In this document: one piece after another, positions 2 to 20,317 of the stretch
How the letters are laid out: each line of letters opens with the position of its first letter
Position numbering within the stretch: the stretch's first letter is position 1
DNA from: Candidatus Iainarchaeum sp.
Lineage (GTDB): Archaea > Iainarchaeota > Iainarchaeia > Iainarchaeales > 0-14-0-20-30-16
Assembly (NCBI GenBank): GCA_028710695.1
Contig: JAQTTP010000003.1
Location: 1 to 32,000, forward strand
Reading direction: 5' to 3'
DNA length: 32,000 nt
Notes under the pieces: model-generated
Seen by the model: only the letters and a program-made list of their open reading frames with translations
Databases searched by the model: none
What the model was told of the DNA's origin: nothing
Translations under genes and position numbers: made by a program

Positions 2-3000
2 AATACTGGATACAATAATGCGGGATATAACACGGGATATGGAAATAATTCAGCATATAACTATCAACCAGGATTAACAGAAGATTATTATTCAAACATG
101 GGCAATTATGTTAACCCTAATTCAAGCATCTACAACAGCCCATCTTATGGAAGTTATACTTCTGGCGGAAGTGCAATTAACTTTATGCCATCAACAATAC
201 AAGTTCTAGCTCCTGGACAGGCAACAATGCTTCAAGGATATATTAATACTCCATCAACATCAAAGCAAACAGAACAATATTATGGAATACAAGCAAGAGG
301 AACAATACAAGGAATTAACCAACAAATATCTGCAAATGGATACCTTGTGATACATGTTTCTCCAGATAAGTGTATTACTCTAAAACAGAAACAAGATAAG
401 TTGACTTACATAAGCGAAACTTTAGGAAAAGAAATTGCAAGATCTTTCACATTAGTGAATAATTGTGCAGAGGCAGTATCAATAACTGGGACAAGCGAAA
501 CAGAATTATTTGGAAACAAAGTAGTTTTATCTGCACCAAATGGAACTACAATTGAATTGGGACAAGAAAAAGAATTTATTTTAACAGTAACTGCAAGCAA
601 AGAAATTTCAAGAGACAACACAGTATTTGTTAAAGGTATTCTTGGTGTAAGCCAAAGCCCATTTAATATTTCATTATTAGTTAATTTGAGATTTGGTGGT
701 GGTGCATTAACTGGAACTGGTGAAGCAACAGTAACAGATCAGAAACAATTGAAAGATTGTGTTACTGGAAATGAAACATCAGTATTCTATCCAAGAATCA
801 CAACTGCTGATTGTTCTACAATGGGTTATTGTGACAGTGAATCAATGTCAAAATATTTGATTGCAAAAATAAAATATTATTTAGAAGTGTATAATAAAAA
901 ATTGACAACAATAAATAACAAATTACAAAATACAAATTGTGAAGTTGGGTCTACTTCCTGTTCATTTGAAGACTTTGGTTTAGAGCCATTAGAATTAGAA
1001 GTTTATTTTTCAAATGATAAATTAACACAAGCTCAGATGGATAACGACTTAAAGAAAATTAATATTGGTCTAATACAAACAGCAATAACTGATGGCGTAG
1101 AATTAACAGAAGTAACATCTACCTGGACGAAAAAATTGTATTTAGATAAGCAACTTGAGGGTTGTGGAAAATATAGTTTAAAAATTACTGGTGCTGTGCA
1201 AGTAATTAATAATGATATAATACAAAAAGACAGTTACAACATGTATGTTCAAGTTTTGAAAAAAGAAAAAACATCTCAATGTGAATTGAAAGTTCAAAAC
1301 GCTTTGAATTATTTGCCAAAAGATACACAAACAAAAAAAGACAATGCATTTGGTTTAAGGCCAGGATACATTGATTATGAAACAACAGATTTAGAGTCAA
1401 TTGGTCAAGAAGTTTCGAAGCATGTATTTAATCAAGATAGATTTTTGAAATCAAGACCTAATACATTATTCTTGAAAAGAGATTCTGTTGCGGAAGGAAA
1501 TTTAGTTGAATTTGAAATAGCACAAAAAGGAACTGATGTAATAACTACTGTAAAGATAAATAAAAATTTGGATATTGGAAATGAAGCCATAGAAAAAGAT
1601 GTTGTAAAAGCAATAACTGGTTTCTTAAATGGAAACTTTGATGGTTGTATTGTAAATACTGGTGAAGGAGTTCCAAACTCCGCAAAAGTAAAATCTGGGA
1701 CTGGCGGTTTAAGTGGAAAAACTAAAGTACCTGGCGAAAAAGAAATTTATGCCGGAGACATAAAATTAGGTGTTTGTAGTAAATTGCCTTTAGGAAAAGG
1801 AACCTGGAAATGTGATATTACAGTTGAATCACAATCTTTGGGAGAAGTAGATTTGTTCTTAACATATCCTGAAGACACTGGCTTGGAAGCATACTTTGAT
1901 TCTAAAGGCGAAAAAACAAAGACACTACAACTAACAAAAGAAGGAAATAAAAGTATTGGAAAAGCAAAAATAAATGTCGAAATTACTGACGCATTCAAAG
2001 TTAATTCTGGTGCAAACAGTGATAGTTCAGGATTATTTTATTATGCGGAAAGAGAAGGAATAAAGACAGAACCAATAAGAATTGCATTTGATGCAGAATG
2101 TGGAATAACTGCACAAACATTTGTGAATGCATTAATGGTTGATATTGGAAAAAATGAAAAAGATTTCAAAGAGTACGCCTTGATTTATGAAAAAGGTGTT
2201 GAGAGTAGAGATACCTGTGAAATCTTTACTGCCTTTGTAAAAGAGGGTTCTCAGTTAGGAGATAAAAGTATTTTTAATGTGGATTTTAAAGGATCAAAGA
2301 AATATGCGACTATAAACTATCCTGATTGTCCATTACAGCAAAAAAGTGTTGTTGCCGCATTGACAAGTAATGCAACAGACCCAACAAAGCTTGGGGCTGC
2401 AACTGCTGCAGGAATGACTGCTTGTATGGTTACAGAAAAATGGATACTGAAATTTTTAGGTCCAATTGGATGGGCTGGAGCAGCATTAGATTGTGGAATA
2501 TTTATGGGTATTAATGTTGGAACAGAATACTATAAAGCCCACAGAATAAATGCAGAAGCAGGAATATCTGAAAAGAATTGGACAGATTCAGTTCATGATG
2601 GATTAGCATCTGTGCCGATTTTGGGAACAATTTTGGGTCTAGAAGATTATTCTAATATAGATGATGAAATTGCACAGATGAAAGAAGAGCAATCATTTGT
2701 TGAAGCTGGAAAAGAAGGGGTATGGGACCAGAAAGAAGAGCAAGGATTGGCAGCAGTGTTGCTTTCATTGAGAAAAGCAAAATCAACTGTTAAACCCGAA
2801 GAAACAACAGTTCCAGAGCCAGAGACTCCAACTACTACTGAGCCTCCGACAACAACAGAACCTCCAACAACAGAGGAGCCACCTGTAGAACCAGAAGAGC
2901 CAGCACCAACAGAAGAACCTCCAAAGGCAACATTTGATCAAGCTAGTTTGGATCAAGCAAATGCGGATCTTGCTACTGCAAAAACAGAATTGGATTCTGC

Positions 3001-5923
3001 ACAAACTGTGGCAGCAGATGCAAAGAATAAAGTTGATTTGAAATCAGGAGAATTGGAGGCAGCAAATAAAAGCGTGGCTGATGCAGAAACAATATATTCT
3101 GATGCAAAAGATAAAACAAAGATAATACAAGCAGAATTGGATGATATTGAAAATGCTTTAAAAAATAATCCTGATTTAGTAAAGAAAAGAAACATTACTG
3201 AAATATTTGAAGAAAGTATGGGCAAGTCCGAGGTCTCTTTGCAAGGTGCAAAAGAAAGATTAGCTGTTACTGTTGCAGAAGAACAAGCAATGTTATCTAA
3301 AATTGATATTCTTGAAAAACAATTAGCGACCGTGACACAATTTGCTCCTGAAGAAATGATTAATGTACAGAATCAAATTGATTGGGCAAAAACACAACAA
3401 CAACTTATTGCAAATCTTAGAGAGACAAGAGAGGGCGTAGTAAAAACTATACAATCTAGTTACGATTCTGCAAAGATAAGTTACGAATCCGCACTAGCAG
3501 ACGAAAAAACCTTATTTGAGTCTTTGAAAAACACAGAAGGACAAAAAATAATTGATAAGCTAACAGTTGCACAAACTGCAGAAGCAGATGCCTTGAAAGT
3601 AGTTGAAACTGCCCAACAGGGTGTGGCTAATGCAGATGACAGTTTAAAAGCAGCAAAAACAGCTCAGAGTACTGCAGATAAAGCAGTAAAAGTTGCTGAA
3701 TCAAAAGTTAAAGTTGCTGAAACTAAAGTAAAGAATCTTGAAATGGCAAAGAACTTAATTGAACACCCAGGATTAACTAATGAAAGATTGAATACTTTAA
3801 CACAAGAGTTAGATGAAATGGATTCCCTTGCAAAAGAGGGAAGAAAGTATGCAAAGGGCACTGAACAAAGAGCAGCATATGCTGCAGAAATAGATGCAAA
3901 AGCCCAGAAGATACATACCTTGTATACTGAATTAGAACCTGAGCTTAAGAACCTTTCAAAGGCTGGTGGAAAGAAACAAGGAAAAGCAGTAATTGCAGCC
4001 TACAAAAAGTTGGGTTTAGAAGGAGCAGGTAAAGAATCTGGCCTAATATTTAAGAGTAGTTTTGGAGAAAAAATAATTGCAAATGAAAGTTTAACAAGTG
4101 AAATAGGAAATGTTAAAGCCGCAGTTAAAGCAAAAATCAGTCCAACACCAATAACTCCTGCGAAAGCAACAATAGATAAAGCAAAATTAGGACAAACTGG
4201 AAAAACAAATGTACCTGACAAGGTGAAAACTACTAAGCCTGCAAAAGCAAAAACACCTTCAAAGCTTAAAACAACTATAAAATCCGGTGCATCAAGAACA
4301 TGGAATTTTATGAAAGGTTTGGGTCAGAGCATTGGTGGTGGTGCAGCAGGAACATTTGCATTCTATGGGATGTTGGACTGGATGCTTGAAACTTCAAAGC
4401 TTCAGATGGTTGTAATAAATGTTGATGCTCCAAAGCAGTTGTATAACTCAACAGGATACACTGGTGCAGTAACCCCATATCTAAATGATGCAAGAACATT
4501 GAAAATATACGAAGGATCTGATGGAAATCAAATTGATAATTGTGGATCATATGGAATCCAAACTGGATTCAAAGAAGCATCAGGAAAGCTTGGCGAAGGA
4601 AGTAAAGAAGATACAAATGTTGGAAAAGGTACAACTGGCGGAGCAGGATTTAGTTCTGAACCAACAGATTATGATGCTTGGATTATAGAAGCAGCAAATA
4701 ATGCAAATAAGAAGGGCGGAATACCTTTAGAACCAGAATTCTTTAAAGCAATTTTAAAATACGAATCAGGATCTGAATTTAGCCCAAATGTAATTTCTAG
4801 TACTGGCTGTTCTGGACTTGGGCAGATTTGTATGAGTAGTGCAATTCAAGAATTTATAAAAGTGCAGTGTAAGCAAAATAAATCTGATGGTCCAAAGAAA
4901 TGTGATACTACTACTTGTAAGGATAGCGACGATTATATTTGGTGTGAGCCTTGTGCTGATGACGGACCAAATTGTGTTCAAGATGACAGATTTGATCCTT
5001 ATAAAAATTTGATGAGCTCAGCAATAACTGTAAAAGGAAAAATAGATTCTGTTGGAGATTGTGGAACTGATAGAATTATGGCTTGGGCAGCAGCATATAA
5101 TATGGGTCAGAAGTGGGTTAAATTAGCTATAGCAAAGAATGGCGGAAATTGTAATGATTGGCCAAATGAAACTTGGTTTAAATTAAAAGAAGTTTCTGAT
5201 GAAAGTAATGGTGAACTTACTGCAGCAAAAATTGCAAACAAAAAAGGAGACTTTACAAATACTTCCAGCGATTATGTTGCAAAAATTAATAATCAATATC
5301 TTGCTTACAAAGGAAGCGGAATAGGATCTGGAGATACCCAAACAGCAAATAATTCTGCAGAAAATAAACCAATAGAAACTTGTGATCAGATTATGTTAGT
5401 TGGAGATTCTTTAACTGAGGGTTATTCGGAAGAGTTTGAAGATAGTTGTCCCGGGGTAGAAGTCTGTGCGGAAAGTGGAAAAAGCACAACTTGGATGGCA
5501 GAGAATTGTTTTACTAACGAAAAATTAGCAAATAAAAAATATGTTGTAATTATGGGTGGAGTTAATAATATTGATACTCCTGATAAAGTTAAATCAGATT
5601 TAGCAAAAATGTATTCCATAGCAAACCAAAAAGGAATTAAAATTTTAGCATTGACAATAATGCCTTGGAAAGGATCAAGTGGCTGGACAGAAGCAGAACA
5701 ACAATATACAGAAAATGTAAATGAGTGGATAAAATCTGCACAGATAAATGGACAAGTTTTGGACACCTATGCTTTGTTTAATGATGGCTCTGATGAATTG
5801 AACGAAAATTACTCAACAAGCGGAAAATTACATTTAAATGAACAGGGGTATGCTGTGCTTTCATCTCAAGTAAGTGGTGCACTTGTTGGTCTTGGAGCTG
5901 AAGGGCAAACACAACCTGCATAA
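2..5923 (+). CDS. Giant multidomain surface/membrane protein, 5'-partial. Order: N/G/Y-rich low complexity, Cys-rich extracellular region, hydrophobic segments, PT linker, roughly 350-aa coiled coil, K/P/T-rich basic stretch, SLT lytic transglycosylase domain, SGNH/GDSL hydrolase domain
   Basis: The frame is open from nt 2 with no stop before the first ATG at 98, so the true start lies upstream of the window. NTGYNNAGYNTGYGNN repeats at nt 2-97. Hydrophobic segments LGAATAAGMTACMV...GWAGAALDCGIFMGINVG (about 2390-2525) and GGGAAGTFAFYGMLDWML (about 4317-4390). A/K/E/Q/L-rich heptad-like region about 2933-3960. SLT and SGNH motifs are listed as sub-features. Stop TAA at 5921-5923. Confidence 0.9.
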   Translation, partial: NTGYNNAGYNTGYGNNSAYNYQPGLTEDYYSNMGNYVNPNSSIYNSPSYGSYTSGGSAINFMPSTIQVLAPGQATMLQGYINTPSTSKQTEQYYGIQARGTIQGINQQISANGYLVIHVSPDKCITLKQKQDKLTYISETLGKEIARSFTLVNNCAEAVSITGTSETELFGNKVVLSAPNGTTIELGQEKEFILTVTASKEISRDNTVFVKGILGVSQSPFNISLLVNLRFGGGALTGTGEATVTDQKQLKDCVTGNETSVFYPRITTADCSTMGYCDSESMSKYLIAKIKYYLEVYNKKLTTINNKLQNTNCEVGSTSCSFEDFGLEPLELEVYFSNDKLTQAQMDNDLKKINIGLIQTAITDGVELTEVTSTWTKKLYLDKQLEGCGKYSLKITGAVQVINNDIIQKDSYNMYVQVLKKEKTSQCELKVQNALNYLPKDTQTKKDNAFGLRPGYIDYETTDLESIGQEVSKHVFNQDRFLKSRPNTLFLKRDSVAEGNLVEFEIAQKGTDVITTVKINKNLDIGNEAIEKDVVKAITGFLNGNFDGCIVNTGEGVPNSAKVKSGTGGLSGKTKVPGEKEIYAGDIKLGVCSKLPLGKGTWKCDITVESQSLGEVDLFLTYPEDTGLEAYFDSKGEKTKTLQLTKEGNKSIGKAKINVEITDAFKVNSGANSDSSGLFYYAEREGIKTEPIRIAFDAECGITAQTFVNALMVDIGKNEKDFKEYALIYEKGVESRDTCEIFTAFVKEGSQLGDKSIFNVDFKGSKKYATINYPDCPLQQKSVVAALTSNATDPTKLGAATAAGMTACMVTEKWILKFLGPIGWAGAALDCGIFMGINVGTEYYKAHRINAEAGISEKNWTDSVHDGLASVPILGTILGLEDYSNIDDEIAQMKEEQSFVEAGKEGVWDQKEEQGLAAVLLSLRKAKSTVKPEETTVPEPETPTTTEPPTTTEPPTTEEPPVEPEEPAPTEEPPKATFDQASLDQANADLATAKTELDSAQTVAADAKNKVDLKSGELEAANKSVADAETIYSDAKDKTKIIQAELDDIENALKNNPDLVKKRNITEIFEESMGKSEVSLQGAKERLAVTVAEEQAMLSKIDILEKQLATVTQFAPEEMINVQNQIDWAKTQQQLIANLRETREGVVKTIQSSYDSAKISYESALADEKTLFESLKNTEGQKIIDKLTVAQTAEADALKVVETAQQGVANADDSLKAAKTAQSTADKAVKVAESKVKVAETKVKNLEMAKNLIEHPGLTNERLNTLTQELDEMDSLAKEGRKYAKGTEQRAAYAAEIDAKAQKIHTLYTELEPELKNLSKAGGKKQGKAVIAAYKKLGLEGAGKESGLIFKSSFGEKIIANESLTSEIGNVKAAVKAKISPTPITPAKATIDKAKLGQTGKTNVPDKVKTTKPAKAKTPSKLKTTIKSGASRTWNFMKGLGQSIGGGAAGTFAFYGMLDWMLETSKLQMVVINVDAPKQLYNSTGYTGAVTPYLNDARTLKIYEGSDGNQIDNCGSYGIQTGFKEASGKLGEGSKEDTNVGKGTTGGAGFSSEPTDYDAWIIEAANNANKKGGIPLEPEFFKAILKYESGSEFSPNVISSTGCSGLGQICMSSAIQEFIKVQCKQNKSDGPKKCDTTTCKDSDDYIWCEPCADDGPNCVQDDRFDPYKNLMSSAITVKGKIDSVGDCGTDRIMAWAAAYNMGQKWVKLAIAKNGGNCNDWPNETWFKLKEVSDESNGELTAAKIANKKGDFTNTSSDYVAKINNQYLAYKGSGIGSGDTQTANNSAENKPIETCDQIMLVGDSLTEGYSEEFEDSCPGVEVCAESGKSTTWMAENCFTNEKLANKKYVVIMGGVNNIDTPDKVKSDLAKMYSIANQKGIKILALTIMPWKGSSGWTEAEQQYTENVNEWIKSAQINGQVLDTYALFNDGSDELNENYSTSGKLHLNEQGYAVLSSQVSGALVGLGAEGQTQPA
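2793..2932 (+). repeat. Pro/Thr/Glu-rich linker with imperfect tandem TTEPP-type repeats inside the giant CDS
   Basis: Translation is KPEETTVPEPETPTTTEPPTTTEPPTTEEPPVEPEEPAPTEEPPKA. The DNA shows reiterated ac(t/a)ac(t/a)gagcc(t/a)cc units around 2826-2885. Confidence 0.8.
4658..5140 (+). other. Domain: SLT (family-1 soluble lytic transglycosylase / goose-lysozyme-like) with a Cys-rich insertion
   Basis: The three SLT signature motifs occur in order: KYESGSEF (catalytic Glu codon 4763-4765), GLGQI (variant of GLMQ), and AAAYNMGQ (AYNxG, 5093-5107). A Cys-rich insert KVQCKQNKSDGPKKCDTTTCKDSDDYIWCEPCADDGPNC lies between motifs 2 and 3. Confidence 0.8.
5381..5870 (+). other. Domain: SGNH/GDSL hydrolase (esterase/deacetylase-type)
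   Basis: Block I is LVGDSLTEGY (GDS at 5402-5410, Ser 5408-5410). Block III-like is VVIMGGVNNI. Block V-like is GKLHLNEQGY (His codon 5831-5833). The usual Asp three residues before this His is not present. Confidence 0.75.
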
Positions 5924-5955
5924 AAGGTTTAAACAAATATTGTGAGGGGCATTAT

Positions 5956-6435
5956 ATGGGTTCATTTTTCAGAAGATCTAAACATATTCTATCTCCTCGT
6001 GAAAGAGTAAGAGTAATAGCGCAAAATCATTTTAGAGACCAAAACTATTTTCACCATTTGGCGGAAATTGCAAGAAGAAGACAATTAATAGACGAAAAAC
6101 ATACAAAAGCCATAGATGAATTACAAAGAACTGAAAAACCAGCAAATAGGGCAGAAATGTCTACAAAAATAAGGCAAATTTTAATTCTACAAAACGAAAA
6201 ACTAATTGAACTGGTCCTTAATATGGCGGGAATTAGCAGAAAAAGAGAAATAATAGAAACCTGGAAAGAACTTGGCAGAGATTATTCTCCGAGGCCGTTA
6301 CATGACGCAAAGATAAACTTATTAATAAAAAGATTGCAAGAAAAAAAATTATTAACAGAACAAGGTGGGCAAAGAATTCGTTTGGCTTTTGAAGATTTTA
6401 AAAAAGCCGAAAAGCTTTGGCAGATAACTTTTTAG
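5956..6435 (+). CDS. Hypothetical basic, helical protein (159 aa)
   Basis: ATG at 5956 preceded by gtgagggg (SD-like). R/K/E/Q-rich sequence with no motif I recognise. It sits tightly between the giant gene and the PLP enzyme gene. Confidence 0.6.
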   Translation: MGSFFRRSKHILSPRERVRVIAQNHFRDQNYFHHLAEIARRRQLIDEKHTKAIDELQRTEKPANRAEMSTKIRQILILQNEKLIELVLNMAGISRKREIIETWKELGRDYSPRPLHDAKINLLIKRLQEKKLLTEQGGQRIRLAFEDFKKAEKLWQITF

Positions 6436-6445
6436 AGTGATAATT

Positions 6446-7744
6446 ATGGCAGATAAAAGTGGAAACAAAATTACTTATTTTAAACCTATAAATGGAAAGC
6501 CAAGAACTGCTTTTGAGGATGGGTCTTGGAAAAATCCTAAACAAGAAGGGCCACTTGGAAAAATAAGGTGGAATAATTGGACACAAGGAACTATGGCAGT
6601 ACATGCTGGTGCTTTAAGGGGCGAAACAGGACCACATGTTTTTGTTCCAATGTATACTGGGACTACTTGTCCTGCGCTTACTTGTGGTGAACTTGCAAAA
6701 AGGTTTGCTAATGCTGGCGTAGACGGAAAAATGGGAAAAATTTATGCTAGATTTGGAACACAATCTGGTTTTGAATTAGAATGTATCTTGGCAGGAATGC
6801 ATGAATGTGGGGATGCCCTAGTTTTTGGAAGTGGGATGGCAGCAATAAGTCAGGTATTTTTATCTTTGGTGGCGGCAGGAGATAATGTTGTTGTGCATAG
6901 AACAATGTATGGTTGTACTGATGGATTGTGTAGCAAAATTTTGCCCGAACTTGGAATAGAAGTGAGATATGTTGATTTAAAAGATCCTAAAGTTCTTGGA
7001 GAAGCAATAGATGAAAGAACAAGAGCAGTTTTTTTTGAAACGCCTGCAAATCCTACATTAGATTTAATAGATATAAAGGCGGTTGTTAAAGAAGTTAAGA
7101 ATCGGTGCCCTGTTGTAGTAGATAACACTTTTGCATCACCCCTTGGTCAAAATCCTTTTGAGCAAGGCGCAAATGTTGTTGTGTACTCTATGACAAAATC
7201 TATAGGCGGACATAGCGATGCTTTGGGCGGAGCAATATTGGGCTCTGGGAAATTTATTGCAAATTTGTATCCCTTGAGAAATGATTTTGGGGGTGTTTTG
7301 CCAGCAAGAGAAGCAGCATCTTTTTTGGTTGGAATAAAAACACTGAAAATACGTTATGAAAAAATGCAAGAAAATGCAAGAGAGCTTGCAAAAATTCTAA
7401 AAAGTAACTCAAAAGTTGAAAAAGTATATTATCCTGAATTTGATAAATCTTATCCTTTGGATGGGCAGATGAAAGGCCCAGGGTATATGATTTCTTTTGT
7501 GCTAAAAGATGGCTTGGGAGCAGGAAAGAAATTTGTTGAGGGTCTTAGGTTAATAACTAATGCTGTAAGCTTGGGTGGAGTAGAATCTTTAGTTTGCCAT
7601 CCAGCAAGTACAACACATTCTGGAGTTAATGCTGAACAGAGAAAGGCCAAAGGTATTGTAGATGGGCTGATAAGATTCTCTGTTGGTTGTGAGGATTTGG
7701 GAGATCTAAAGAAAGACTTGCAAAAAGGGCTTGATTCTATTTGA
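6446..7744 (+). CDS. Cys/Met-metabolism PLP-dependent enzyme (cystathionine gamma-synthase / methionine gamma-lyase / O-acetylhomoserine sulfhydrylase family)
   Basis: PLP-lysine motif VVYSMTKSIGGHSDALGG, plus DNTFASP and GSGMAAI motifs. The ORF track starts at GTG 6437, but aGAGTGATaattATG places the SD at 6435-6441, so ATG 6446 is the likely start. The N-terminal extension of about 45 aa is atypical. Confidence 0.85.
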   Translation: MADKSGNKITYFKPINGKPRTAFEDGSWKNPKQEGPLGKIRWNNWTQGTMAVHAGALRGETGPHVFVPMYTGTTCPALTCGELAKRFANAGVDGKMGKIYARFGTQSGFELECILAGMHECGDALVFGSGMAAISQVFLSLVAAGDNVVVHRTMYGCTDGLCSKILPELGIEVRYVDLKDPKVLGEAIDERTRAVFFETPANPTLDLIDIKAVVKEVKNRCPVVVDNTFASPLGQNPFEQGANVVVYSMTKSIGGHSDALGGAILGSGKFIANLYPLRNDFGGVLPAREAASFLVGIKTLKIRYEKMQENARELAKILKSNSKVEKVYYPEFDKSYPLDGQMKGPGYMISFVLKDGLGAGKKFVEGLRLITNAVSLGGVESLVCHPASTTHSGVNAEQRKAKGIVDGLIRFSVGCEDLGDLKKDLQKGLDSI

Positions 7745-7756
7745 TGGCTAGCAGAG

Positions 7757-7786
7757 AAAAAAAAAGCCCTGTTTTTTTATTTTTTG
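7757..7786 (+). terminator. Oligo-T termination signal / A-run:T-run hairpin after the PLP enzyme gene
   Basis: agaAAAAAAAAAgccctgTTTTTTTaTTTTTT. The A9 and T7 runs can pair around a gccctg loop, and archaeal RNAP terminates on oligo-dT. Confidence 0.45.
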
Positions 7787-7950: not shown

Positions 7951-7956
7951 ATTTCA

Positions 7957-8190
7957 TTGTCAAATAAAGAAATTCTTAACCATAGCTTAGTGCCTAAATT
8001 TGAGATAATGTCTAAAGAAGATATAGAACTATTTCTAAAGGAAAAAGGATTAACAAAAAAAGAACTTCCTATTTTGAAAGAACTTGACCCTGTAGTTCCT
8101 CTCATAAATGCGAAGATAGGGGACGTAGTAAAAATAACTAGAAAGTCTGTATTTGTTGGGACTTATCTATATTATAGGGTTGTGGAGTGA
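7957..8190 (+). CDS. rpoH: DNA-directed RNA polymerase subunit H (Rpo5)
   Basis: HSLVPKFEIMSKEDIELFL...LPILKELDPVV...GDVVKITRKS...YYRVV matches the RpoH/Rpb5 C-terminal signature. TTG start at 7957. The internal ATG at 8008 would delete the conserved HxLVP motif. Confidence 0.9.
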   Translation: MSNKEILNHSLVPKFEIMSKEDIELFLKEKGLTKKELPILKELDPVVPLINAKIGDVVKITRKSVFVGTYLYYRVVE

Positions 8191-8195
8191 TTACA

Positions 8196-9668
8196 GTGAC
8201 ATATTGGCCTTTAGTTGAATCTTATTTTAAAAATACTGACTTAATTAAGCAAAATATTGAGTCTTATAACCTATTTGTAGAAAAAGAACTTCCGGAAATA
8301 ATAAAAGAAAATCAAAACATAGAATCAAAAGTTGGAAATGTAGAACTAGAATTAAGTAATTTACAGGTATTAAACCCACAAATTATTGAGGCAGACGGCT
8401 CAAGAAGAAACGATGTTTACCCTATGGAAATAAGATTGAGAGATAAGAGCTACACAGCTCCGATTTATGTTGATATAAGCCTTAAAAGAAAAGGTGTTGT
8501 TTACGACCATAAAAGAAGTTATATTGGTGATTTGCCAATAATGGTAAAATCAAATAAATGCTTATTAAATGGATTATCAAAAGAAGAATTAGTTGCTTTG
8601 GGAGAAGATGCAAGAGACCCGGGCGGATATTTTATAATAAATGGAAGCGAAAAAATAATTGTAAACCAAGAAATCCTGGCGGATAAAAGAATGTTAGTTT
8701 CCGATATGCAGAATGGAAAAGTTGCAGTTGATGTAATTTCAACAAAAGGGGCATTTAGGGGAAAGGTAAGAATTTTAAGAAACCCAAATGGTCTTTTAGA
8801 AGTTGCATTCCCCTCAAGTCCAAAGAAATTGAAATTATTTACCTTACTTAGGGCATTAGGATTGGAAACATTTGAAGAATTTTCAGCAGCTTTTTCTAAT
8901 AAATTAGAAGTAAAGAATGATGTTTTATTAAATTTTGAAAAAATGGGTGTTGAATCTGAAGAAGAAGCATTAGATAAAATAGGAAAATATGTTGCTCCTG
9001 GACAGATTGTAAGTTATAGATTAAGAAGAGCGCAAGAAGTAATTGACTCATTCTTATTGCCTCACATTGGTCAAGCACCACAGAAGAGATTAATGAAAGG
9101 ATATTATCTGGCAACAATGGCAGAAAGAGCAATTGAAAGAGCATATGGAAAAAGAACAGAAGATGATAAAGACAATTATATGAACAAAAAAATTGATATG
9201 AGTGGAAAACTTTTAGCTCAGCAATTTAGATATGCTTTCAAATTTTTTGTAAGTGATATAAAATTCCAGATTGACAGAAATATTGTAAGAAGAAGAAAAT
9301 TGAACATAAATACAGTAATAAGGCCAAGTGCTTTGACAGATAGACTTAATTTTGCAATGGCAACAGGAAGCTGGGCAGCAAGATTGCAAGGTGTTTCAAA
9401 GTATGTTGAAAAAATCAACTGGCTATCTAATTATATTGAATTAAGAAGAGTAAGATCAACTCTTGACAGAACTAGGGAAAACTATGAAGCAAGAGATGTT
9501 CATGGCTCAGCTTTGGGAAGAATTTGCCCAATACAAACTCCGGACGGACCTATGTGTGGTTTAGCAAAGAACTTAGCATTGATGTCAAAAGTTACAAATG
9601 AAATTGATTCTGATTCCGTTCAAGAAATTGTAACTAAATTAGGGGTTGTTGAAAGGAGCAAAAAGTAA
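8196..9668 (+). CDS. rpoB2: DNA-directed RNA polymerase subunit B'' (N-terminal half of split Rpo2)
   Basis: Rpb2 N-terminal lobe/protrusion/fork-like sequence (GGYFIINGSEKIIVNQE, ICPIQTPDGPMCGLAKNLA). The ORF track starts at GTG 8187, but GGAGTGATtacaGTG has the same SD-plus-4-nt geometry as other genes here, which favours GTG 8196. Confidence 0.93.
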   Translation: MTYWPLVESYFKNTDLIKQNIESYNLFVEKELPEIIKENQNIESKVGNVELELSNLQVLNPQIIEADGSRRNDVYPMEIRLRDKSYTAPIYVDISLKRKGVVYDHKRSYIGDLPIMVKSNKCLLNGLSKEELVALGEDARDPGGYFIINGSEKIIVNQEILADKRMLVSDMQNGKVAVDVISTKGAFRGKVRILRNPNGLLEVAFPSSPKKLKLFTLLRALGLETFEEFSAAFSNKLEVKNDVLLNFEKMGVESEEEALDKIGKYVAPGQIVSYRLRRAQEVIDSFLLPHIGQAPQKRLMKGYYLATMAERAIERAYGKRTEDDKDNYMNKKIDMSGKLLAQQFRYAFKFFVSDIKFQIDRNIVRRRKLNINTVIRPSALTDRLNFAMATGSWAARLQGVSKYVEKINWLSNYIELRRVRSTLDRTRENYEARDVHGSALGRICPIQTPDGPMCGLAKNLALMSKVTNEIDSDSVQEIVTKLGVVERSKK

Positions 9669-9679
9669 CTGGTGGTACT

Positions 9680-11485
9680 ATGGATCAAGCAAAAGTTTAT
9701 TTTGATGGAAGCTTACTTGGGTTTTACGAAGATCCTAAGAAATTAATGAAAGAAATAAAGAAACTTAGGCGAGAAAACAAGTTGAGTAGTAGTGTTAACA
9801 TAAGTTACATGGACAGCACAAATGAAGTTTATATTAATACAAGTGCAGGAAGAATACAAAGACCATTAATAGTTGTTGAAAATGGAAAACCAAAAGTTAC
9901 TCCTGAGCACATAGAAAAAGTAAAAAAAGGAACTTTGACATTTGAAGATTTAGTAAAAAATGGATTAGTTGAGTACCTGGATGCAGAGGAAGAAGATATT
10001 GCATTAGTTGCTATTTTTGAAAAAGATATAACAAAAGACCACACACACCTAGAATTAGACCCTGTTGTTTTATTTGGATTTGTAGTTGGAATGATTCCAT
10101 ATGTAAATCAGAATTCACCGGGTAAATCATTGCACGGAGCAAAGATGTTTAAACAGGCGGTAGGTTATTGTAGTCCAAACCAAGGATATAGAGTTGATAC
10201 TGATTCTTATGAATTATATTATCCACAAAAGCACTTAGTAAAAACAAAAGTAATGGACTTATTTAATTCTGATGAGAGGCCAGTAATTCAAAATTTTGTT
10301 GTTGCAATTATGCCTTATTATGGTTATAACATGCAAGATGCTGTAATACTAAATAAAGGTGCAATAGATAGAGGATTAGGGAGACTATCTTATTATAGAA
10401 CTTATACTTCTGAAGAAACAATTTATCCCGGTGGATTAAAAGATTCAATTTGCTATCCAGATGAAGATGTAGATGACTATTTGGGTCTAGAAGCATATTC
10501 TGTTTTGGGTTCAGATGGAATTGCAGAAGTAGAAACATTTGTTTCAAGAAAAAATGTGATTATTGGAAAAACAAGTCCACCAAAATATGTTGAAGAAATT
10601 TCAGAATTTGGTGTATTAAAAGAAAAAAGAATAGACAGTTCAATGGAAATAAGAAAAAATAAAGAAGGATATGTTGATAAAGTATTTTTGAACAGCGACG
10701 GAATTGCAAAAAGAATAAAAGTAAAAATAAGAACTCCAAAAATCCCGGAACTTGGAGATAAATTTGCTTCCAAGCATGGACAGAAAGGTGTTGTAGGTTA
10801 TGTTGCTAATGAGGAAGACATGCCTTTTAGTGTAAATGGCTTGAAGCCAGATTTGATACTGAACCCACACTCAATTCCATCAAGAATGACTGTTGGTCAC
10901 TTAGTTGAAATGCTTGCAGGAACTGCTGCTTGTGCGTCAGGAAAAGAAGTTGATGGAACAGTATATTCTGGTTCTAATGTTGAAGATTTGAAAAAGATAT
11001 TAGCGGATAATGGATTTTCTCCAACTGGAACAGAAACTTTTTATGACGGTTTAACAGGTAAAAAAGTTGTTGGAGAAGTATTTACTGGACAAATTTCTTA
11101 TAGAAGATTATACCACTTTGTTTCACATAAGATGCAGGCAAGATCAAGAGGTCCTGTGCAAATGTTAACAAGGCAACCTACTGAAGGAATGGAAAAAGAA
11201 GGTGGATTAAAATTCGGAGAGATGGAAACCGATTGTTTAATTGGTTATGGAGCAACAATGTTGTTGAATGAGAAATTATTGGACGACTCAGATAAAATTG
11301 TTGTGCCTGTTTGTAAAAGATGTGGTATTGTTGCTGTTAGCGATAATGTCCAGAAAAAAACTTATTGTAATATGTGTAATAAATCAGAAATCGTAAGGGT
11401 TGCAATGCCATATGCATTCAAAATCTTTATGGATGAACTGAGGGCTTTGATGATTTATCCGAGGCTTTCTGTTAAGGAGTTCTAA
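9680..11485 (+). CDS. rpoB1: DNA-directed RNA polymerase subunit B' (C-terminal half of split Rpo2)
   Basis: Motifs GDKFASKHGQKGV, PDLILNPHSIPSRMTVG, SRGPVQMLTRQPTEG, and a C-terminal Zn ribbon CKRCG...CNMC. SD GGTGGT lies 3 nt before the ATG. Confidence 0.96.
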   Translation: MDQAKVYFDGSLLGFYEDPKKLMKEIKKLRRENKLSSSVNISYMDSTNEVYINTSAGRIQRPLIVVENGKPKVTPEHIEKVKKGTLTFEDLVKNGLVEYLDAEEEDIALVAIFEKDITKDHTHLELDPVVLFGFVVGMIPYVNQNSPGKSLHGAKMFKQAVGYCSPNQGYRVDTDSYELYYPQKHLVKTKVMDLFNSDERPVIQNFVVAIMPYYGYNMQDAVILNKGAIDRGLGRLSYYRTYTSEETIYPGGLKDSICYPDEDVDDYLGLEAYSVLGSDGIAEVETFVSRKNVIIGKTSPPKYVEEISEFGVLKEKRIDSSMEIRKNKEGYVDKVFLNSDGIAKRIKVKIRTPKIPELGDKFASKHGQKGVVGYVANEEDMPFSVNGLKPDLILNPHSIPSRMTVGHLVEMLAGTAACASGKEVDGTVYSGSNVEDLKKILADNGFSPTGTETFYDGLTGKKVVGEVFTGQISYRRLYHFVSHKMQARSRGPVQMLTRQPTEGMEKEGGLKFGEMETDCLIGYGATMLLNEKLLDDSDKIVVPVCKRCGIVAVSDNVQKKTYCNMCNKSEIVRVAMPYAFKIFMDELRALMIYPRLSVKEF

Positions 11486-11494
11486 GGTGAGATT

Positions 11495-14101
11495 ATGTTA
11501 GCAAAAATAAACGGATTAAAATTTGGAATTTTGCCCCCAGACCAAGTAAGAAAAATGTCTGTGATAGAAGTAAAAACTCACGAACTCTATGATAAAGATG
11601 GCTATCCAATTGAGGGTGGAATAATGGACCCACATTTGGGAGTTGTTGAAAAAGGAAGAAAGTGTAAAACTTGTGGAAACGCAGTTGATAGATGTCACGG
11701 ACATTTTGGACATCTAGAGTTAGTTAGACCAGTTGTGCACGCAGGATATTATAGAAAAGTAGAACAATTAGTTTTTTCAACTTGTAAAGGTTGTGGAAGA
11801 GCATTATTAACTGCAGAAGAATTAACTGCAGCAAAAAAAATAAAAGAATTAGAAATAAGAATGAAATATATTTTAGCAAAATCTGCAACTAAAAAAACAT
11901 GTCCTTATTGTGGTGAAACAAAATTAGTTTACAGATTGGATCCTCCAACAAATTTTTCTATTGTAAATGAAAGTTCTGAAGAAGATATGAAAAGATTATA
12001 CCCAACAGAAATAAGAGAATGGTTTGAAAAATTGCAAGATGATGATTTAGCAATCTTTGGGTATAAAGATTTGAGACCAGAATGGTTTATACTTACTGTT
12101 TTGCCAATACCGCCAGTTTCATTGCATCCATCAATTGTTTTAGAAACTGGAACAAGATCAGAAGATGATCTAACATTCAAATTAGTTGATATAATACTAA
12201 ATAATAATAGATTAAGAGATAATATAAATGCTGGAGCACCACAATTAATGATAGAGGATTTGTGGAATCTTTTGCAACACAATATTACAACTTATTTTAA
12301 CAACAATACTCCTGCTGTGCCTCCATCTAAACATAGATCAGGAAGATTACTTAAGACATTAGTTCAAAGAATAAAAGGAAAAACTGGAATTATAAGACAG
12401 AACTTAATGGGAAAGAGAGTAAACTTTGCAGCAAGATCTACAATTACTCCAGATATTTTTATTAAGCCTGATGAAGTTGGAGTTCCTGTTGCTTTTGCAG
12501 AAGAACTAACTGTTGCAGAAAAAGTTACAGATTATAATGTTGAAGCAATGAGAGAACTAATAAAGAATACGGCATTGGTAAGATATGTAATAAAGAAAGT
12601 TGGTGGAAGAAAGAAAGTAATTGATATAGTAAAAGATAGTATCTCAACTGAACTTGAAGCAGGGGATATAATTGAAAGAGTTCTAAAAAACGGGGACGAA
12701 GTTTTATTTAATAGATATCCATCATTGCACAGAGTTTCTATAATGACACATAAGGTAAAAATAGTTGACGGAAAGGCAATTAGAATGCACCCAACAACTT
12801 GTAAGCCTTATAACGCAGACCACGATGGAGATGAAATGAACATCCACGTTCCACAAAGGGAAGAAGGAAAAACAGAAGCAATAGAACTTTTAAGTGTTGA
12901 AAAAAACATAATATCTCCAAGAGATGGATCAATAATTGTTATCCCAATTGAAGATATTGTTTCTGGTGCATTCATTTTAACATTGCCAACAACAAAAATT
13001 TCTAGAGAAGACGCAATGAACTATTTTAATATTGCAGGAATTGACAAGATTCCAAAACCAGATTTGGGAGATTACTATTCTGGAAAAGTAATATTTAGTT
13101 CATTACTTCCAAAAGGAATAAATCTAAGATATCTTTCAGATGTAAATAGATTTGTTGATGCGGAAAAGAAAACAAATAAACAAATAAAAGATGCAGTAGA
13201 AGTAATAATTGAAGATGGTGAATTAAAACAAGGAATGATTGATAAAAAAGGTTTAGCAAGTGGTTCTGCAAAAATAATATTTGCTATCCAAAGAAAGCAC
13301 GGAAATACAGCAGTAATTGACTTTTACAATAAACTTACAAGAGTTGCATTAGATGTTTGTACAAGATATGGATTAACAACAGCAATTGACGACAATGCAA
13401 TGCAAAAAGACTTCTATACTTGGAAAGAAAAAAAGATGGAAGAGCTTGTAGATGTTTCTTTAGATTTAGAAAAAAGATATAAGAATAGATCATTAGAAAA
13501 AATGCCTGGAAAGAACATACACAATTCATTTGAGGCATATATTATGAGAGAGGGATACTCAACAAAGAAAGAAATTGAGTCCAGAATTGTTGGAAAACTT
13601 ATTGACAATATTTTTGTTGATGAACCAAAGTTTAATTCTTTGATTATGATCCTAAGTGGAGCTAGAGGAAAGGTAGACAACTTAACAAACATGGGTGGAA
13701 CTGTTGGGCAGGCAGCTGTAAGAGAGAAGAGGCCATCAAGAGGATTCACAGATAGAGTTTTAAGTTACTACAAAAGAGATATGGACTCTGCACTACCAAG
13801 AGGATACATCACAAAATCATATTATGAGGGATTGCTTCCACACGAGTTATACTTTATGAGTATGGGTGCAAGACAGGGAGAAGTTGATACTGGTGTTTCA
13901 ACAAAAATCTCAGGATATTTGTATAGAAGAATATCACACGCAACAAGAGATTTATTCACTGCTGAAGACCTAAGTGTAAGAAACACAGACAACAAAATAA
14001 TACAATTTATGTACGGTGAAGATGGAATATATCCTCAGAATTTAGAGGGCCGTGATCTGGTTGGAGATAGTTTCTTTTCAGATTATATAAAGAAGAAGTG
14101 A
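11495..14101 (+). CDS. rpoA1: DNA-directed RNA polymerase subunit A' (Rpo1N)
   Basis: Zn motif CKTCGNAVDRCHGHFGH, RQNLMGKRVNFAARSTITPD, and the catalytic loop NADHDGDEMN (12812-12841; His replaces the canonical Phe). SD AAGGTGAGattATG. Confidence 0.96.
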   Translation: MLAKINGLKFGILPPDQVRKMSVIEVKTHELYDKDGYPIEGGIMDPHLGVVEKGRKCKTCGNAVDRCHGHFGHLELVRPVVHAGYYRKVEQLVFSTCKGCGRALLTAEELTAAKKIKELEIRMKYILAKSATKKTCPYCGETKLVYRLDPPTNFSIVNESSEEDMKRLYPTEIREWFEKLQDDDLAIFGYKDLRPEWFILTVLPIPPVSLHPSIVLETGTRSEDDLTFKLVDIILNNNRLRDNINAGAPQLMIEDLWNLLQHNITTYFNNNTPAVPPSKHRSGRLLKTLVQRIKGKTGIIRQNLMGKRVNFAARSTITPDIFIKPDEVGVPVAFAEELTVAEKVTDYNVEAMRELIKNTALVRYVIKKVGGRKKVIDIVKDSISTELEAGDIIERVLKNGDEVLFNRYPSLHRVSIMTHKVKIVDGKAIRMHPTTCKPYNADHDGDEMNIHVPQREEGKTEAIELLSVEKNIISPRDGSIIVIPIEDIVSGAFILTLPTTKISREDAMNYFNIAGIDKIPKPDLGDYYSGKVIFSSLLPKGINLRYLSDVNRFVDAEKKTNKQIKDAVEVIIEDGELKQGMIDKKGLASGSAKIIFAIQRKHGNTAVIDFYNKLTRVALDVCTRYGLTTAIDDNAMQKDFYTWKEKKMEELVDVSLDLEKRYKNRSLEKMPGKNIHNSFEAYIMREGYSTKKEIESRIVGKLIDNIFVDEPKFNSLIMILSGARGKVDNLTNMGGTVGQAAVREKRPSRGFTDRVLSYYKRDMDSALPRGYITKSYYEGLLPHELYFMSMGARQGEVDTGVSTKISGYLYRRISHATRDLFTAEDLSVRNTDNKIIQFMYGEDGIYPQNLEGRDLVGDSFFSDYIKKK

Positions 14102-14106
14102 TAATT

Positions 14107-15237
14107 ATGACTGGTTTGCCATTGAACGTTCAAAATAAGATAAGCAAATATGTTGAAAAACGTAAGCTAAGCAAGGACGACGAAAAAGAATTACATAAAA
14201 GAGCAAAAATTCTTTATGAAGATTCTAAAGTAACTCCTTATGACACAGTGGGTTTATTAGCAGCACACTCAATGGCAGAGCCTGCTACTCAGATGGTTTT
14301 AAGAACAAAGCACTTCGCAGGTGCTGCGGAAGTATCTGTTGGATCAGGAATAGAAATTCTATCATCTTTAGTTGATGCAAGAAGTAAGGTAAGGTATCCA
14401 ATAATGCACGTTCATCTAAAAGGGGAACTGGCAAAAGATGAGAAGAAAGCAAAAGAATGTATGAGCCACTTGGTTTATTCTGTGTTGGCTGATGTTACTG
14501 AAATAACTGAGGATTTGGAAACAAAGAAAATCACTGTAAAAATTGATAATAAAGCTCTTGCGGAAAGAGGTCTAGAAAAAACAGAAATATTTGAACTTTT
14601 GAAGAAACAATACAAGAAAAAAGCAACCGACGAAAAGGATACAGTAACAATATTATTTGATGATGTTAACCTGCAAACAATAAGAAAAAATTTCTTAAAG
14701 TTAAGGAAAATGAAGATCACTGGTCTTGAAGGGATTACCGAAGCAATACTTTTAAAAGATGATGGTGAATATTATATTACTACTGAGGGCAGCAATCTAA
14801 AGGGAGTCTTCGAGTTAGATTTTGTTGATACCGACAAAACATATACTAATGATGTAATGGAAACTGCCAAGGTTTTGGGCATAGAAGCCGCAAGGCAGTT
14901 GCTTGTTAATGAATTGGTAAAAGTTTACCAAGATAACAACATTAGTATTGACGCAAGACATCTGCTTTTATTGGCGGATGTAATGTGCTTCGAAGGAATT
15001 ATTAGAGGAACAGTAAGATCCGGAATAGTAAGCACTAAGGAAAGTCCACTTGCAAGAGCATCTTTTGAACAAACTGAAAAAGTTTTATTTGATGCGGCTT
15101 TTGCAGGGGAAAATGAGAAGTTTAAAGGTATTATTGAAAACATTTTGGCAGGTTTGCCAATTAATGTTGGTGTAGGAAGAATAGAATTAGTTATGGATAA
15201 TCTTGGGAAAAAAGAAAAAGTAAAAGGTGGTAAGTAA
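14107..15237 (+). CDS. rpoA2: DNA-directed RNA polymerase subunit A'' (Rpo1C)
   Basis: Trigger-loop region GLLAAHSMAEPATQMVLRTKHFAGAA and C-terminal PLARASFEQT. The ORF track starts at GTG 14098, which is the SD itself (AAGTGATaattATG), so ATG 14107 is likely. The stop overlaps the rpl30e start (TAATG). Confidence 0.95.
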   Translation: MTGLPLNVQNKISKYVEKRKLSKDDEKELHKRAKILYEDSKVTPYDTVGLLAAHSMAEPATQMVLRTKHFAGAAEVSVGSGIEILSSLVDARSKVRYPIMHVHLKGELAKDEKKAKECMSHLVYSVLADVTEITEDLETKKITVKIDNKALAERGLEKTEIFELLKKQYKKKATDEKDTVTILFDDVNLQTIRKNFLKLRKMKITGLEGITEAILLKDDGEYYITTEGSNLKGVFELDFVDTDKTYTNDVMETAKVLGIEAARQLLVNELVKVYQDNNISIDARHLLLLADVMCFEGIIRGTVRSGIVSTKESPLARASFEQTEKVLFDAAFAGENEKFKGIIENILAGLPINVGVGRIELVMDNLGKKEKVKGGK

Positions 15238-15542
15238 TGGCATTCATGGATCAATTAAGAAACGCAATAAGAAGTGGAAAATTTGCTTATGGGACAAGAC
15301 AAAGCGAAGAACAGATCTTGACTGGAAAAGCAAAGGCAATAATTCTATCAGAAAAAGCAGAAGAATTAATGGTTGAAAGAATAAAATATTTAGCAGAAGT
15401 TGGAAAGATTCCAATAAAAGTATTGAATTTGTCAACTAAAGAACTTGGTGAGACATTCACATTGGCTTACCCAGTATCAGTTGCAGTAGTTTTAGATGAA
15501 GGAGATTCAAAGATAATTTCAGAGATAAAGACTGAAAAATAA
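15237..15542 (+). CDS. rpl30e: 50S ribosomal protein L30e
   Basis: L30e-like sequence ([25 protein letters not shown]...[14 protein letters not shown]) in the canonical position after rpoA2. SD AGGTGG lies upstream within the rpoA2 3' end. Confidence 0.9.
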
Positions 15543-15564
15543 ATTTATTTTTAAAGTGATTTTT

Positions 15565-15996
15565 ATGGGTAGTGGAGAATACGCAGCAGGACAATTACAA
15601 AAGAAAAGAAAAAAATGGAGAAAGAAATCAAAGAAATACTTAAAACAAGCTGAAAGACGGCAAAACCAGTTCAAAGGTGCTCTTAAAGGCGCTCCAATGG
15701 GCAGTGGAATTGTTATTGGTAAGAAAGCTGTTGAAGCTAGGCAGCCAAACTCAGCTTTGAGAAAATGTGTTGTTGTTCAACTTAAGAAAAATGGAATAAA
15801 AGTTGCTGCATTTGCTCCAAGAGATAAAGCAATAACTTTTATTGATGAGCACGACGAAGTAGTAATTTCCGGAATTAACGGAAAGAAAGGTGGGCCTTAT
15901 GGAGATCTATGGGGTGTAAGATACAAGGTTGAAAAAGTAAACAACATTTCCCTAGAGATGCTAAGGACTAAGAGAAAAGAAAAAGTAAGAAGGTAA
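15565..15996 (+). CDS. rps12: 30S ribosomal protein S12 (uS12)
   Basis: [28 protein letters not shown]...[12 protein letters not shown]...[10 protein letters not shown]. The ORF track's GTG 15556 is the SD (AAGTGATttttATG), so ATG 15565 is likely. Confidence 0.95.
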
Positions 15997-16018
15997 AGGC
16001 TAAAAATTGGGTGAAAAT

Positions 16019-16621: not shown

Positions 16622-16667
16622 TAGCTAATAATTATGTGAATGTTTTGAAATGTTTTAAGTGATTTTG

Positions 16668-18866: not shown

Positions 18867-18954
18867 CCTAAAGAAAAAAGGTATTTGTTTTTATAGGTTT
18901 TGGACCAGAAAAATATGAGATATATTTAATGAGGAGTTATAAGGAGGAGTTAAT

Positions 18955-20253: not shown

Positions 20254-20261
20254 TATCCAAT

Positions 20262-20292
20262 AGGAAGTAACCCTTCCTTTTTTTATTTTTTT
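20262..20292 (+). terminator. Hairpin plus T-tract after tuf (attenuator/terminator-like)
   Basis: AGGAAG-taacc-CTTCCT is a 6-bp stem at 20262-20278. It is followed directly by TTTTTTTaTTTTTTT. Confidence 0.5.
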
Positions 20293-20317
20293 AATATGAA
20301 AAAGAAAAGTGATAATT

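Follow-up and report, generated by a model that had tools for sequence, protein, structure and literature searches.

A predicted lytic transglycosylase–SGNH esterase module terminating a giant archaeal protein encoded next to the RNA polymerase operon

Why would an archaeon, which has no murein of its own, encode a set of enzymes predicted to cut murein? This question is raised by the first 32,000 nucleotides of contig JAQTTP010000003.1 (GenBank assembly GCA_028710695.1), hereafter the window, in which a lytic transglycosylase domain of the SLT type and an SGNH hydrolase domain are encoded in a single reading frame upstream of an archaeal RNA polymerase (rpo) operon. A first-pass annotation had described positions 4658-5923 as a murein-cutting tandem. 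Both domains are present, but this interval is neither a separate gene nor the whole story, since it comprises the last 421 codons of a giant open reading frame (ORF) that encodes 1,941 amino acids (aa) from its first in-frame ATG at position 98 to position 5923. Moreover, this frame stays open as far as the 5' edge of the window, which truncates the gene and leaves the N-terminus outside. The reading favoured here, with moderate confidence, is that the tandem would be the C-terminal muralytic module of a giant, fast-evolving surface protein of an archaeon, aimed at bacterial peptidoglycan, with the SGNH domain removing a small acyl group. As the archaeon is without murein, the target of such a module would be bacterial.

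The three signatures annotated for the SLT domain occur in order and in one frame, namely YES (4760-4768), GLGQ (4814-4825), and AYNMG (5093-5107). The residues encoded by 4658-5920 match the SLT profile PF01464 with an E-value of 2.7e-7 and 30.6 bits (cutoff 21.3), a match that spans only positions 12-62 of the profile hidden Markov model, since the domain is interrupted by an insert of ~45 residues that is rich in Cys. A match to a flagellar transglycosylase in NCBIfam was far under its cutoff and was dismissed. In an alignment of 33 family sequences, E36, S39, G53, Q56, Y147, N148, and G150 (numbered from the start of the 421-residue fragment) are invariant. Among solved structures, the family profile matches the lytic transglycosylases MltC (E 5e-20 to 9e-17), MltE (~1e-11), MltF (~1e-10), and Slt70 (~1e-9), and also goose-type lysozymes (~1e-8). 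The Glu of the ES motif falls in a column where chain 4cfo has Gln; this chain otherwise agrees with 4c5f and is taken here to be the catalytic Glu-to-Gln mutant of MltC. Thus, the predicted catalytic Glu, invariant in the family and aligned to the Glu/Gln column of 4c5f and 4cfo, coincides with a known active-site residue.

The structural prediction points in the same direction. AlphaFold2, run with the family alignment, yielded a model of the SLT domain with a mean pLDDT (predicted local distance difference test) of 92.3 and a pTM (predicted template modelling score) of 0.87, showing a lysozyme-like, alpha-helical fold in which E36 is placed at the C-terminal end of a helix formed by residues 26-36. 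In a Foldseek comparison with the PDB, the top 19 matches, including MltE, MltC, MltF, and Slt, are all lytic transglycosylases, the first 13 with a probability of 1.00. Their TM-scores are only 0.41-0.52, modest values that are attributed to the beta-hairpin insert of the predicted model. Confident modelling covers the SLT domain only: single-sequence AlphaFold2 of the 421-residue module was unusable (pLDDT 40.6), and no confident model of the SGNH domain was obtained. The domain therefore has in common with the Gram-negative family-1 lytic transglycosylases that provide its best profile and Foldseek matches (MltC, MltE/EmtA, and Slt70 of E. coli; MltF and Slt of P. aeruginosa) the ES, GLxQ, and AYNxG motifs, the lysozyme-like fold, and the catalytic Glu at a helix end. 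Unlike these enzymes, it carries the ~45-residue Cys-rich hairpin between GLxQ and the next helix and a total of ten cysteines and, in contrast to periplasmic housekeeping transglycosylases, it terminates a giant archaeal protein.

The Cys-rich hairpin, whose strands in the model correspond to residues 81-89, 94-98, and 106-108, is common to ~40 of the best 150 relatives in an exhaustive phmmer search over 1.84 billion representatives, which returned 922 relatives at E ≤ 0.001. On the basis of these alignments, the insert is considered to define a subfamily of SLT domains. The ten cysteines are gained and lost pairwise among the relatives (51/58, r = 1.0; 87/96, r = 0.94; 71/82, r = 0.80; 99/106, r = 0.56), and Cys135 pairs with either 142 or 165. 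Since paired covariation of this kind is the pattern expected for disulfides, the enzyme would be extracytoplasmic and disulfide-bonded.

A flexible Gly/Ser linker joins the SLT domain to the SGNH domain. The motifs previously assigned to the latter were recovered in the same frame as the SLT signatures, namely GDSL (5402-5413), GGVNN (5555-5569), and LHLNEQGY (5828-5851), and the Lipase_GDSL_2 profile PF13472 matches with an E-value of 3.2e-14 and 54.2 bits (cutoff 32.9). G249, D250, and S251 of block I, G301 and N303 of block III, and H392 of block V are invariant in the SGNH alignment, while ESGKST (5471-5488) fits the consensus AxxGxxT. The predicted nucleophile aligns with an active-site Ser, in a column that is Ser in 9kr0 and Ala in 9kqz. 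The best solved relatives found by family profiles are 9kr0 and 3p94, both uncharacterised GDSL proteins, with E-values down to 2e-37 (3e-30 for 3p94), followed by 7tog, 4ppy, 4hf7, 4iyj, the sialate O-acetylesterase 6njc, and platelet-activating factor (PAF) acetylhydrolases, with TesA matching more weakly. The entry 7tog was used in work on acetyl-xylan esterases (PMC9105624), and the solved relatives with a named activity are mostly acetyl-specific esterases. Blocks I, II, and III and the His of block V are common to the window domain, to the carbohydrate acetylesterases 7tog and 6njc, and to 3p94, 4ppy, and 4hf7, a group of acylhydrolases of unassigned function. However, the proteins of the acetylesterase group are stand-alone enzymes of polysaccharide degraders, or are linked there to a carbohydrate-binding module (CBM), and most of them have the Asp of the DxxH motif, features in which the window protein differs. 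Taken by its sequence relationships, the domain appears best described as an acetylesterase-like GDSL_2 enzyme, for which the label 'Ape type', given in the first-pass annotation, expresses a functional hypothesis and not a family assignment.

The combination of both activities would make chemical sense. Lytic transglycosylases use the C6 hydroxyl that N-acetylmuramic acid (MurNAc) carries to form a 1,6-anhydro product, 6-O-acetylation of MurNAc blocks them, and the esterase Ape1 removes the acetyl group. In the favoured reading, the giant protein, which is inferred to sit on the cell surface, would use a long stalk made up of its N-terminal region, a Pro/Thr linker, and ~400 helix-rich residues to present both enzymes outside the cell. 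The SLT domain would then cleave the beta-1,4 bonds between MurNAc and N-acetylglucosamine in bacterial peptidoglycan, and the tethered SGNH domain would remove a small acyl group, for which the most economical candidate would be the 6-O-acetyl group of MurNAc. The target may be the wall of a bacterial host, prey, or competitor, between which the sequence cannot distinguish. In Neisseria, the transglycosylase LtgA and Ape1 are separate proteins that associate in a complex, each stimulating the other (PMC7083599), whereas in the window both activities would be covalently linked. Thus, the tandem is plausibly a fused version of the LtgA–Ape1 pair, and de-O-acetylation of peptidoglycan by the SGNH domain would be a coherent deduction by analogy, following a logic similar to that of Ape1 in Neisseria and Campylobacter, where deacetylation at MurNAc C6 lets transglycosylases act.

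Several points weigh against this reading and have to be considered together. The glycoside hydrolase family 23 (GH23), the family of the SLT domain, also contains hydrolytic lysozymes and at least one chitinase. Neither a signal peptide nor a confident transmembrane helix is visible in the protein, whose N-terminus lies beyond the window and whose hydrophobic segments are weak, and the counts of domain associations presented below come from matches to a two-domain query, which enriches for fusions. In addition, block V reads SGKLH both in the window and in the ortholog (L001), with Gly instead of the canonical Asp, this Gly being aligned with the Asp of GDYLH in 7tog. An 86%-identical fragment (P0001) reads DGKLH, and Asp occupies the position in 64 of the 104 homologs scored in a rough regular-expression census. 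With Ser, Gly, Asn, and His in place but no triad Asp, the SGNH domain likely uses a Ser-His dyad. Dyads that dispense with this Asp are documented in esterases of carbohydrate esterase family 2 (PMC9487903), so that its esterase activity is plausible, but not certain. As for Ape1, it belongs to the same broad Pfam family GDSL_2, yet its SGNH domain is interrupted by an inserted CBM (PMC9487903), whereas the ~170 residues of the window domain run on without interruption and align with Pfam positions 2-178 of 178 as a single match. Furthermore, the 60 PDB matches listed per SGNH family profile include no Ape1 entry in either case, which, together with the missing CBM and triad Asp, leaves the 'Ape type' label unsupported as a family name. 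Finally, GDSL_2 is very broad, with 38,435 members (PMC9487903), and the substrate of the domain can thus not be read from family membership.

This breadth, together with the absence of Ape1 from the listed matches, is also what leaves room for the best surviving alternative, which is possible but rather doubtful. According to it, the SLT domain cuts peptidoglycan while the SGNH domain does something else, acting as a lipase or phospholipase on the membrane or lipoproteins of the target, or removing acyl groups from teichoic acids, capsular or secondary wall polysaccharides, or sialic-acid-like sugars. The PDB matches of the domain do include TesA/lysophospholipase L1, at ~1e-9 and alongside acetylesterases, and the matching viral family is named 'lipase' in PHROGs. 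Nevertheless, its strongest characterised relatives (7tog, sialate O-acetylesterase, and PAF acetylhydrolases) are acetyl-specific, its fusion partners are peptidoglycan enzymes and not membrane toxins, and the pairing of a lytic transglycosylase with a de-O-acetylase has the biochemical precedent of LtgA and Ape1 (PMC7083599).

These fusion partners can be followed in both subfamilies. Among 43 representatives of the SLT subfamily, GDSL_2 is present in 8, Metallophos in 7, and DUF218 in 5, the other partners being Amidase_2, Peptidase_M15, M23, M74, and Polysacc_deac_1. Similarly, the 65 multidomain representatives of the SGNH subfamily carry SLT (in 10), T4SS_pilin (in 6), and M23 (in 3), besides Amidase_2, Amidase_3, and NlpC/P60, and five representatives show the order SGNH-then-SLT, the reverse of that in the window. 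Some of the relatives are archaeal, such as a 779-aa protein composed of Polysacc_deac_1, GDSL_2, and SLT (P0003; NCBI MBI4980284.1) from a 'Candidatus Woesearchaeota archaeon', an SLT + Amidase_2 protein encoded in a Nanoarchaeia metagenome-assembled genome (MAG; locus L003), and a 1,155-aa SLT protein encoded in a Woesearchaeota MAG. Word-indexed protein searches gave one match for the module, and a profile search gave mostly generic SLT proteins. Among the possible substrates of the cassette, these associations speak for peptidoglycan.

A second genomic arrangement was observed among the relatives. In three loci (L002 92-7872, L008 1752-15380, and L010 1-7660, the last from a Woesearchaeota MAG), a giant protein of 1,151-1,882 aa is followed by a protein of ~200 aa, a multidomain SLT enzyme, and enolase, and both L008 and L010 have RelA/SpoT after enolase. 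From locus to locus, the giant and the ~200-aa proteins show 43-53% identity, and BLAST detected no similarity between their giants and the giant protein of the window outside the SLT/SGNH module.

The same associations bear on a further alternative, considered improbable, in which the substrate is not murein at all, but chitin or chitooligosaccharides, another beta-1,4 amino-sugar polymer, or an envelope glycan of an archaeal host, from which the SGNH domain would remove acetyl groups. In its favour, GH23 includes the chitinase mentioned above, partners of carbohydrate esterase family 4 (CE4) and SGNH type also occur in chitin and xylan deacetylases, one cluster member being named 'peptidoglycan/xylan/chitin deacetylase', and every cultured DPANN archaeon lives on another archaeon (PMC8204110). 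Against this stand the best profile matches, which are murein transglycosylases (MltC, MltE, MltF, and Slt70, E 5e-20 to 1e-9), and the fusion of relatives to domains specific for peptide stems of peptidoglycan, namely Amidase_2/3, M23, M15, M74, and NlpC/P60. Pseudomurein, with its beta-1,3 links and N-acetyltalosaminuronic acid, is likewise ill-suited to an SLT enzyme.

Whether the protein belongs to the archaeon depends in turn on its genomic setting. The archaeal nature of the DNA, as first annotated, is borne out by Pfam: the giant gene is followed by rpoH, split rpoB and rpoA genes, and genes for ribosomal proteins and elongation factors, and a wyosine-formation radical S-adenosylmethionine enzyme and a diphthamide synthase domain are also encoded 3' of it. 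The source is probably a small, uncultivated DPANN archaeon of the Woesearchaeota/Pacearchaeota/Nanoarchaeia type, judging from the relatives in Nanoarchaeia and Woesearchaeota MAGs, the low G+C content, and the compact genes. An ortholog scan, which took one genome per species, identified in the MAG of an 'uncultured archaeon' (L001) a protein of at least 2,573 residues with 51% identity to the window protein over ~2,040 aligned positions, residue 9 of the window being aligned with residue 431 of the ortholog. It likewise carries SLT followed by GDSL_2, and its gene is located directly upstream of rpoH and rpoB''. The ortholog locus is also found on two JGI metagenome contigs (L011 and L012), and the giant gene, rpoH, and rpoB'' lie together on single contigs in all three cases.

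Conservation between both organisms is far from uniform, as RpoB'' is 92% and RpoB' 87% identical, in contrast to 51% for the giant protein. Within the latter, identity amounts to ~70% in the N-terminal region, ~25% in the stalk, 62-70% in the SLT domain, and ~54% in the SGNH domain. Such a profile is what would be expected of a surface or interaction protein, in which the enzymatic and N-terminal parts are constrained and the spacer is not. The stalk itself (2912-4063), at ~25% identity against 54-74% for the flanking regions, is a spacer that evolves very fast. Past its SGNH domain, the ortholog continues for ~150 further C-terminal residues (L001 7200-7722), made up of a linker rich in Pro and a small domain with Cys residues, an extension that is lacking in the window protein.

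The conserved position beside the rpo operon also bears on another, decidedly improbable alternative, namely that the gene is an accessory of a mobile element or secretion system of bacterial origin, encoding a wall-penetrating enzyme of VirB1-like or tape-measure-like type and not an archaeal host-interaction protein. The closest SGNH relative outside the near-identical P0001 (E 4.9e-26) is P0011, a 547-aa protein combining GDSL_2, T4SS_pilin, and SLT (L013 8001-9644), whose SGNH domain is 44% identical to that of the window and whose gene belongs to a locus with the bacterial type IV secretion genes PrgI, TraC-like, and VirB4-like, beside MurT and RecG. A wall hydrolase of the VirB1 type would be expected in a locus of this kind, and T4SS_pilin recurs in 6 of the 65 SGNH relatives. 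In addition, the PDB matches of the SLT profile extend to T7 gp16 and to the tape-measure protein of a phage, and a helix-rich stalk with Gly-rich hydrophobic segments and a terminal lysin recalls the tape-measure layout. However, within the 32-kb window Pfam revealed no genes for type IV secretion or integrases and none of phage type, and the chromosomal position beside the rpo operon is kept in a genome whose RpoB subunits are 87-92% identical. A viral origin was rejected, as no relatives were found in IMG/VR and both PHROGs and the viral structure library gave generic lysins only. More generally, the wall hydrolases of type IV secretion (VirB1-type proteins, PrgK, TraG of pIP501, and those of Patescibacteria loci; PMC12102498) combine SLT with a second wall-active domain and breach peptidoglycan locally, as P0011 with its GDSL, pilin, and SLT domains in such a locus exemplifies, whereas the window gene is far larger and has a conserved position beside the rpo operon, with no secretion genes around it. 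The reading as an archaeal surface protein is thus preferred.

The least probable alternative, a bacterial fragment carrying the giant gene misjoined to an archaeal contig, draws on an independent Logan assembly of SRR22315508, in which a break (at 6435-6453) separates the giant gene from the rpo operon, in partial agreement with a refuting observation named in the first-pass annotation. However, the two Logan contigs (window 7-6453, L006, and 6435-17995) show 100% identity to the window and share an overlap of 19 nucleotides, the tetranucleotide composition of positions 1-6435 correlates with that of the rest at r = 0.96 (within-window range 0.87-0.97), GC content and strand skew run across the window with no step, and the synteny is conserved on the single contigs L001, L011, and L012, so that a chimeric contig is very unlikely. 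The Logan break falls between the 159-aa ORF and the gene of the pyridoxal phosphate (PLP) enzyme located downstream of the giant gene.

The layout of the giant protein and of its surroundings is summarized in Table 1. At its visible beginning (window 1-100), the frame opens with a low-complexity stretch rich in Asn, Gly, and Tyr, NTGYNNAGYNTGYGNNSAYNY. The Logan contig L006 stops at window position 7, and assemblies seem to break there, possibly because of a repeat. Residues 1-760 have no match in Pfam, and a word-indexed search of 5.8 billion proteins, a method almost blind to this family, found no homologs of the N-terminal 930 residues. Hydrophobicity is highest in the first Gly/Ala-rich segments, where the 19-residue Kyte-Doolittle mean peaks at 1.35 (residues 787-805); these segments may be membrane-associated, although they are not confident transmembrane helices. 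A role of the Gly-rich segments as pilin-like elements of type IV secretion was considered and set aside, given that Pfam provides no such match in the giant protein. Residues ~939-1322 probably form a coiled-coil stalk, and a match of this region to the SEC10/PgrA surface-exclusion family in NCBIfam (24 bits against a cutoff of 70) was discarded as coiled-coil noise.

Table 1. Positions of the giant ORF, its domains and predicted catalytic residues, and the genes downstream of it in the window.
Feature	Position	Strand	Basis
Giant ORF	2..5923	+	at least 1,973 codons; open frame reaches window position 2
Lineage-specific N-terminal region, ORF residues 1-760	98..2377	+	Cys-containing; ~70% identity with ortholog
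Gly/Ala-rich weakly hydrophobic segments, residues ~765-848	2390..2641	+	conserved in ortholog
Pro/Thr/Glu-rich linker, residues ~899-943	2792..2926	+	sequence and composition
Helix-favouring stalk region, residues ~939-1322	2912..4063	+	composition scan; ~25% identity with ortholog
Second Gly-rich weakly hydrophobic segment, residues ~1403-1432	4304..4393	+	conserved in L001; directly precedes enzymatic module
SLT/GH23 lytic transglycosylase domain, ORF residues 1521-1745	4658..5332	+	Pfam, family alignment, PDB profile matches, AlphaFold2/Foldseek
Predicted catalytic Glu, E1556 of ORF (E36 of fragment)	4763..4765	+	invariant in 33 sequences; MltC alignment
Cys-rich beta-hairpin insert in SLT domain, fragment residues ~68-110	4859..4987	+	conserved pattern VQCxQ..GPxxC..WCxxC..C..DDRFDPxKNI
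SGNH hydrolase domain (Lipase_GDSL_2), ORF residues ~1764-1930	5387..5887	+	Pfam; PDB matches 7tog, 9kr0
Predicted nucleophile Ser, S1771 of ORF (S251 of fragment), block I GDS	5408..5410	+	invariant
Block III GGVNN, with the Gly and Asn (N1823) of the oxyanion hole	5555..5569	+	G301, N303 invariant
Block V GKLH, His1912 present; canonical Asp at His-3 is Gly	5822..5833	+	H392 invariant
159-aa hypothetical protein and Cys/Met-metabolism PLP enzyme, between giant gene and rpoH	5956..7744	+	
rpoH-rpoB''-rpoB'-rpoA'-rpoA''-L30e-S12-S7-EF2-EF1alpha-S10 cluster	7957..20623	+	Pfam

Some features of the neighbouring genes can be recorded as well. The genes for the 159-aa protein and the PLP enzyme are missing at the corresponding position of the ortholog locus (L001 7722-8234), indicating an insertion or deletion in one lineage. 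Within the cluster, L30e is directly followed by S12 (15237-15996), with no nusA between them, while nusA occupies this place in many archaea. On the minus strand, positions 27122-29161 encode a 679-aa ORF in which a glutamine amidotransferase and Asn-synthase module is joined to a diphthamide synthase domain (Diphthami_syn_2), which looks like an unusual fusion.

With regard to previous knowledge, the cutting of bacterial walls by DPANN archaea is an already known idea, published repeatedly since 2013. Large murein-like transglycosylase proteins of up to ~3,000 aa were described in Woesearchaeota and Pacearchaeota as family fam00969 and interpreted as extracellular enzymes acting on bacterial walls (Castelle et al. 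2021, PMC8204110), following earlier reports on the same groups (Rinke 2013; Castelle 2015) that are cited in that paper. GH23 genes or murein transglycosylases in such archaea were also reported by Vigneron et al. 2022 (PMC9723730) and in a 2024 study of oxygen-deficient zones (PMC10936187), and a 2025 publication that deals with peptidoglycan hydrolases of archaea (PMC12352652) mentions large archaeal transglycosylases. Thus, bacterial murein as the target of an archaeon, as proposed in the first-pass annotation, is a reasonable idea, but not a new one, having been published for DPANN archaea (PMC8204110, PMC9723730, PMC10936187). Like the fam00969 proteins, the window protein is very large (1,973 residues or more, and no fewer than 2,573 in the ortholog) and bears an SLT/GH23 domain, a likeness by size and domain content and not a family assignment, and it adds an SGNH/GDSL partner. 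The terms GDSL and SGNH are absent from PMC8204110 and PMC12352652, and the literature search found no paper describing a fusion of a lytic transglycosylase with an SGNH domain. Consequently, what is added to a known theme is incremental, namely the coupling to SGNH, which is possibly new, and the SLT subfamily with its Cys-rich insert.

A broader scenario is possible and is put forward only tentatively. The giant protein could be the wall-breaching arm with which DPANN archaea attach to or prey on bacteria, its coupled enzymes defeating O-acetylated, lysozyme-resistant peptidoglycan, and the cassette of SGNH and SLT with the Cys-rich insert could be a host-entry module common to DPANN archaea and to bacteria with type IV secretion that has spread by horizontal transfer.

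Murein-cutting enzymes constitute the main genomic argument that some DPANN archaea exploit bacteria. The existing picture of these proteins is left unchanged by the locus, whose reading rests on sequence and on a structural model. What the locus adds to this picture is, firstly, a giant, fast-evolving protein that ends in an enzyme module and whose chromosomal position is conserved. Secondly, it adds a transglycosylase repeatedly coupled to an SGNH esterase, to which relatives add amidases, peptidases, and a CE4 deacetylase, a combination that would fit chemically modified bacterial walls. Finally, it provides a compact module of 421 residues with named predicted catalytic residues.

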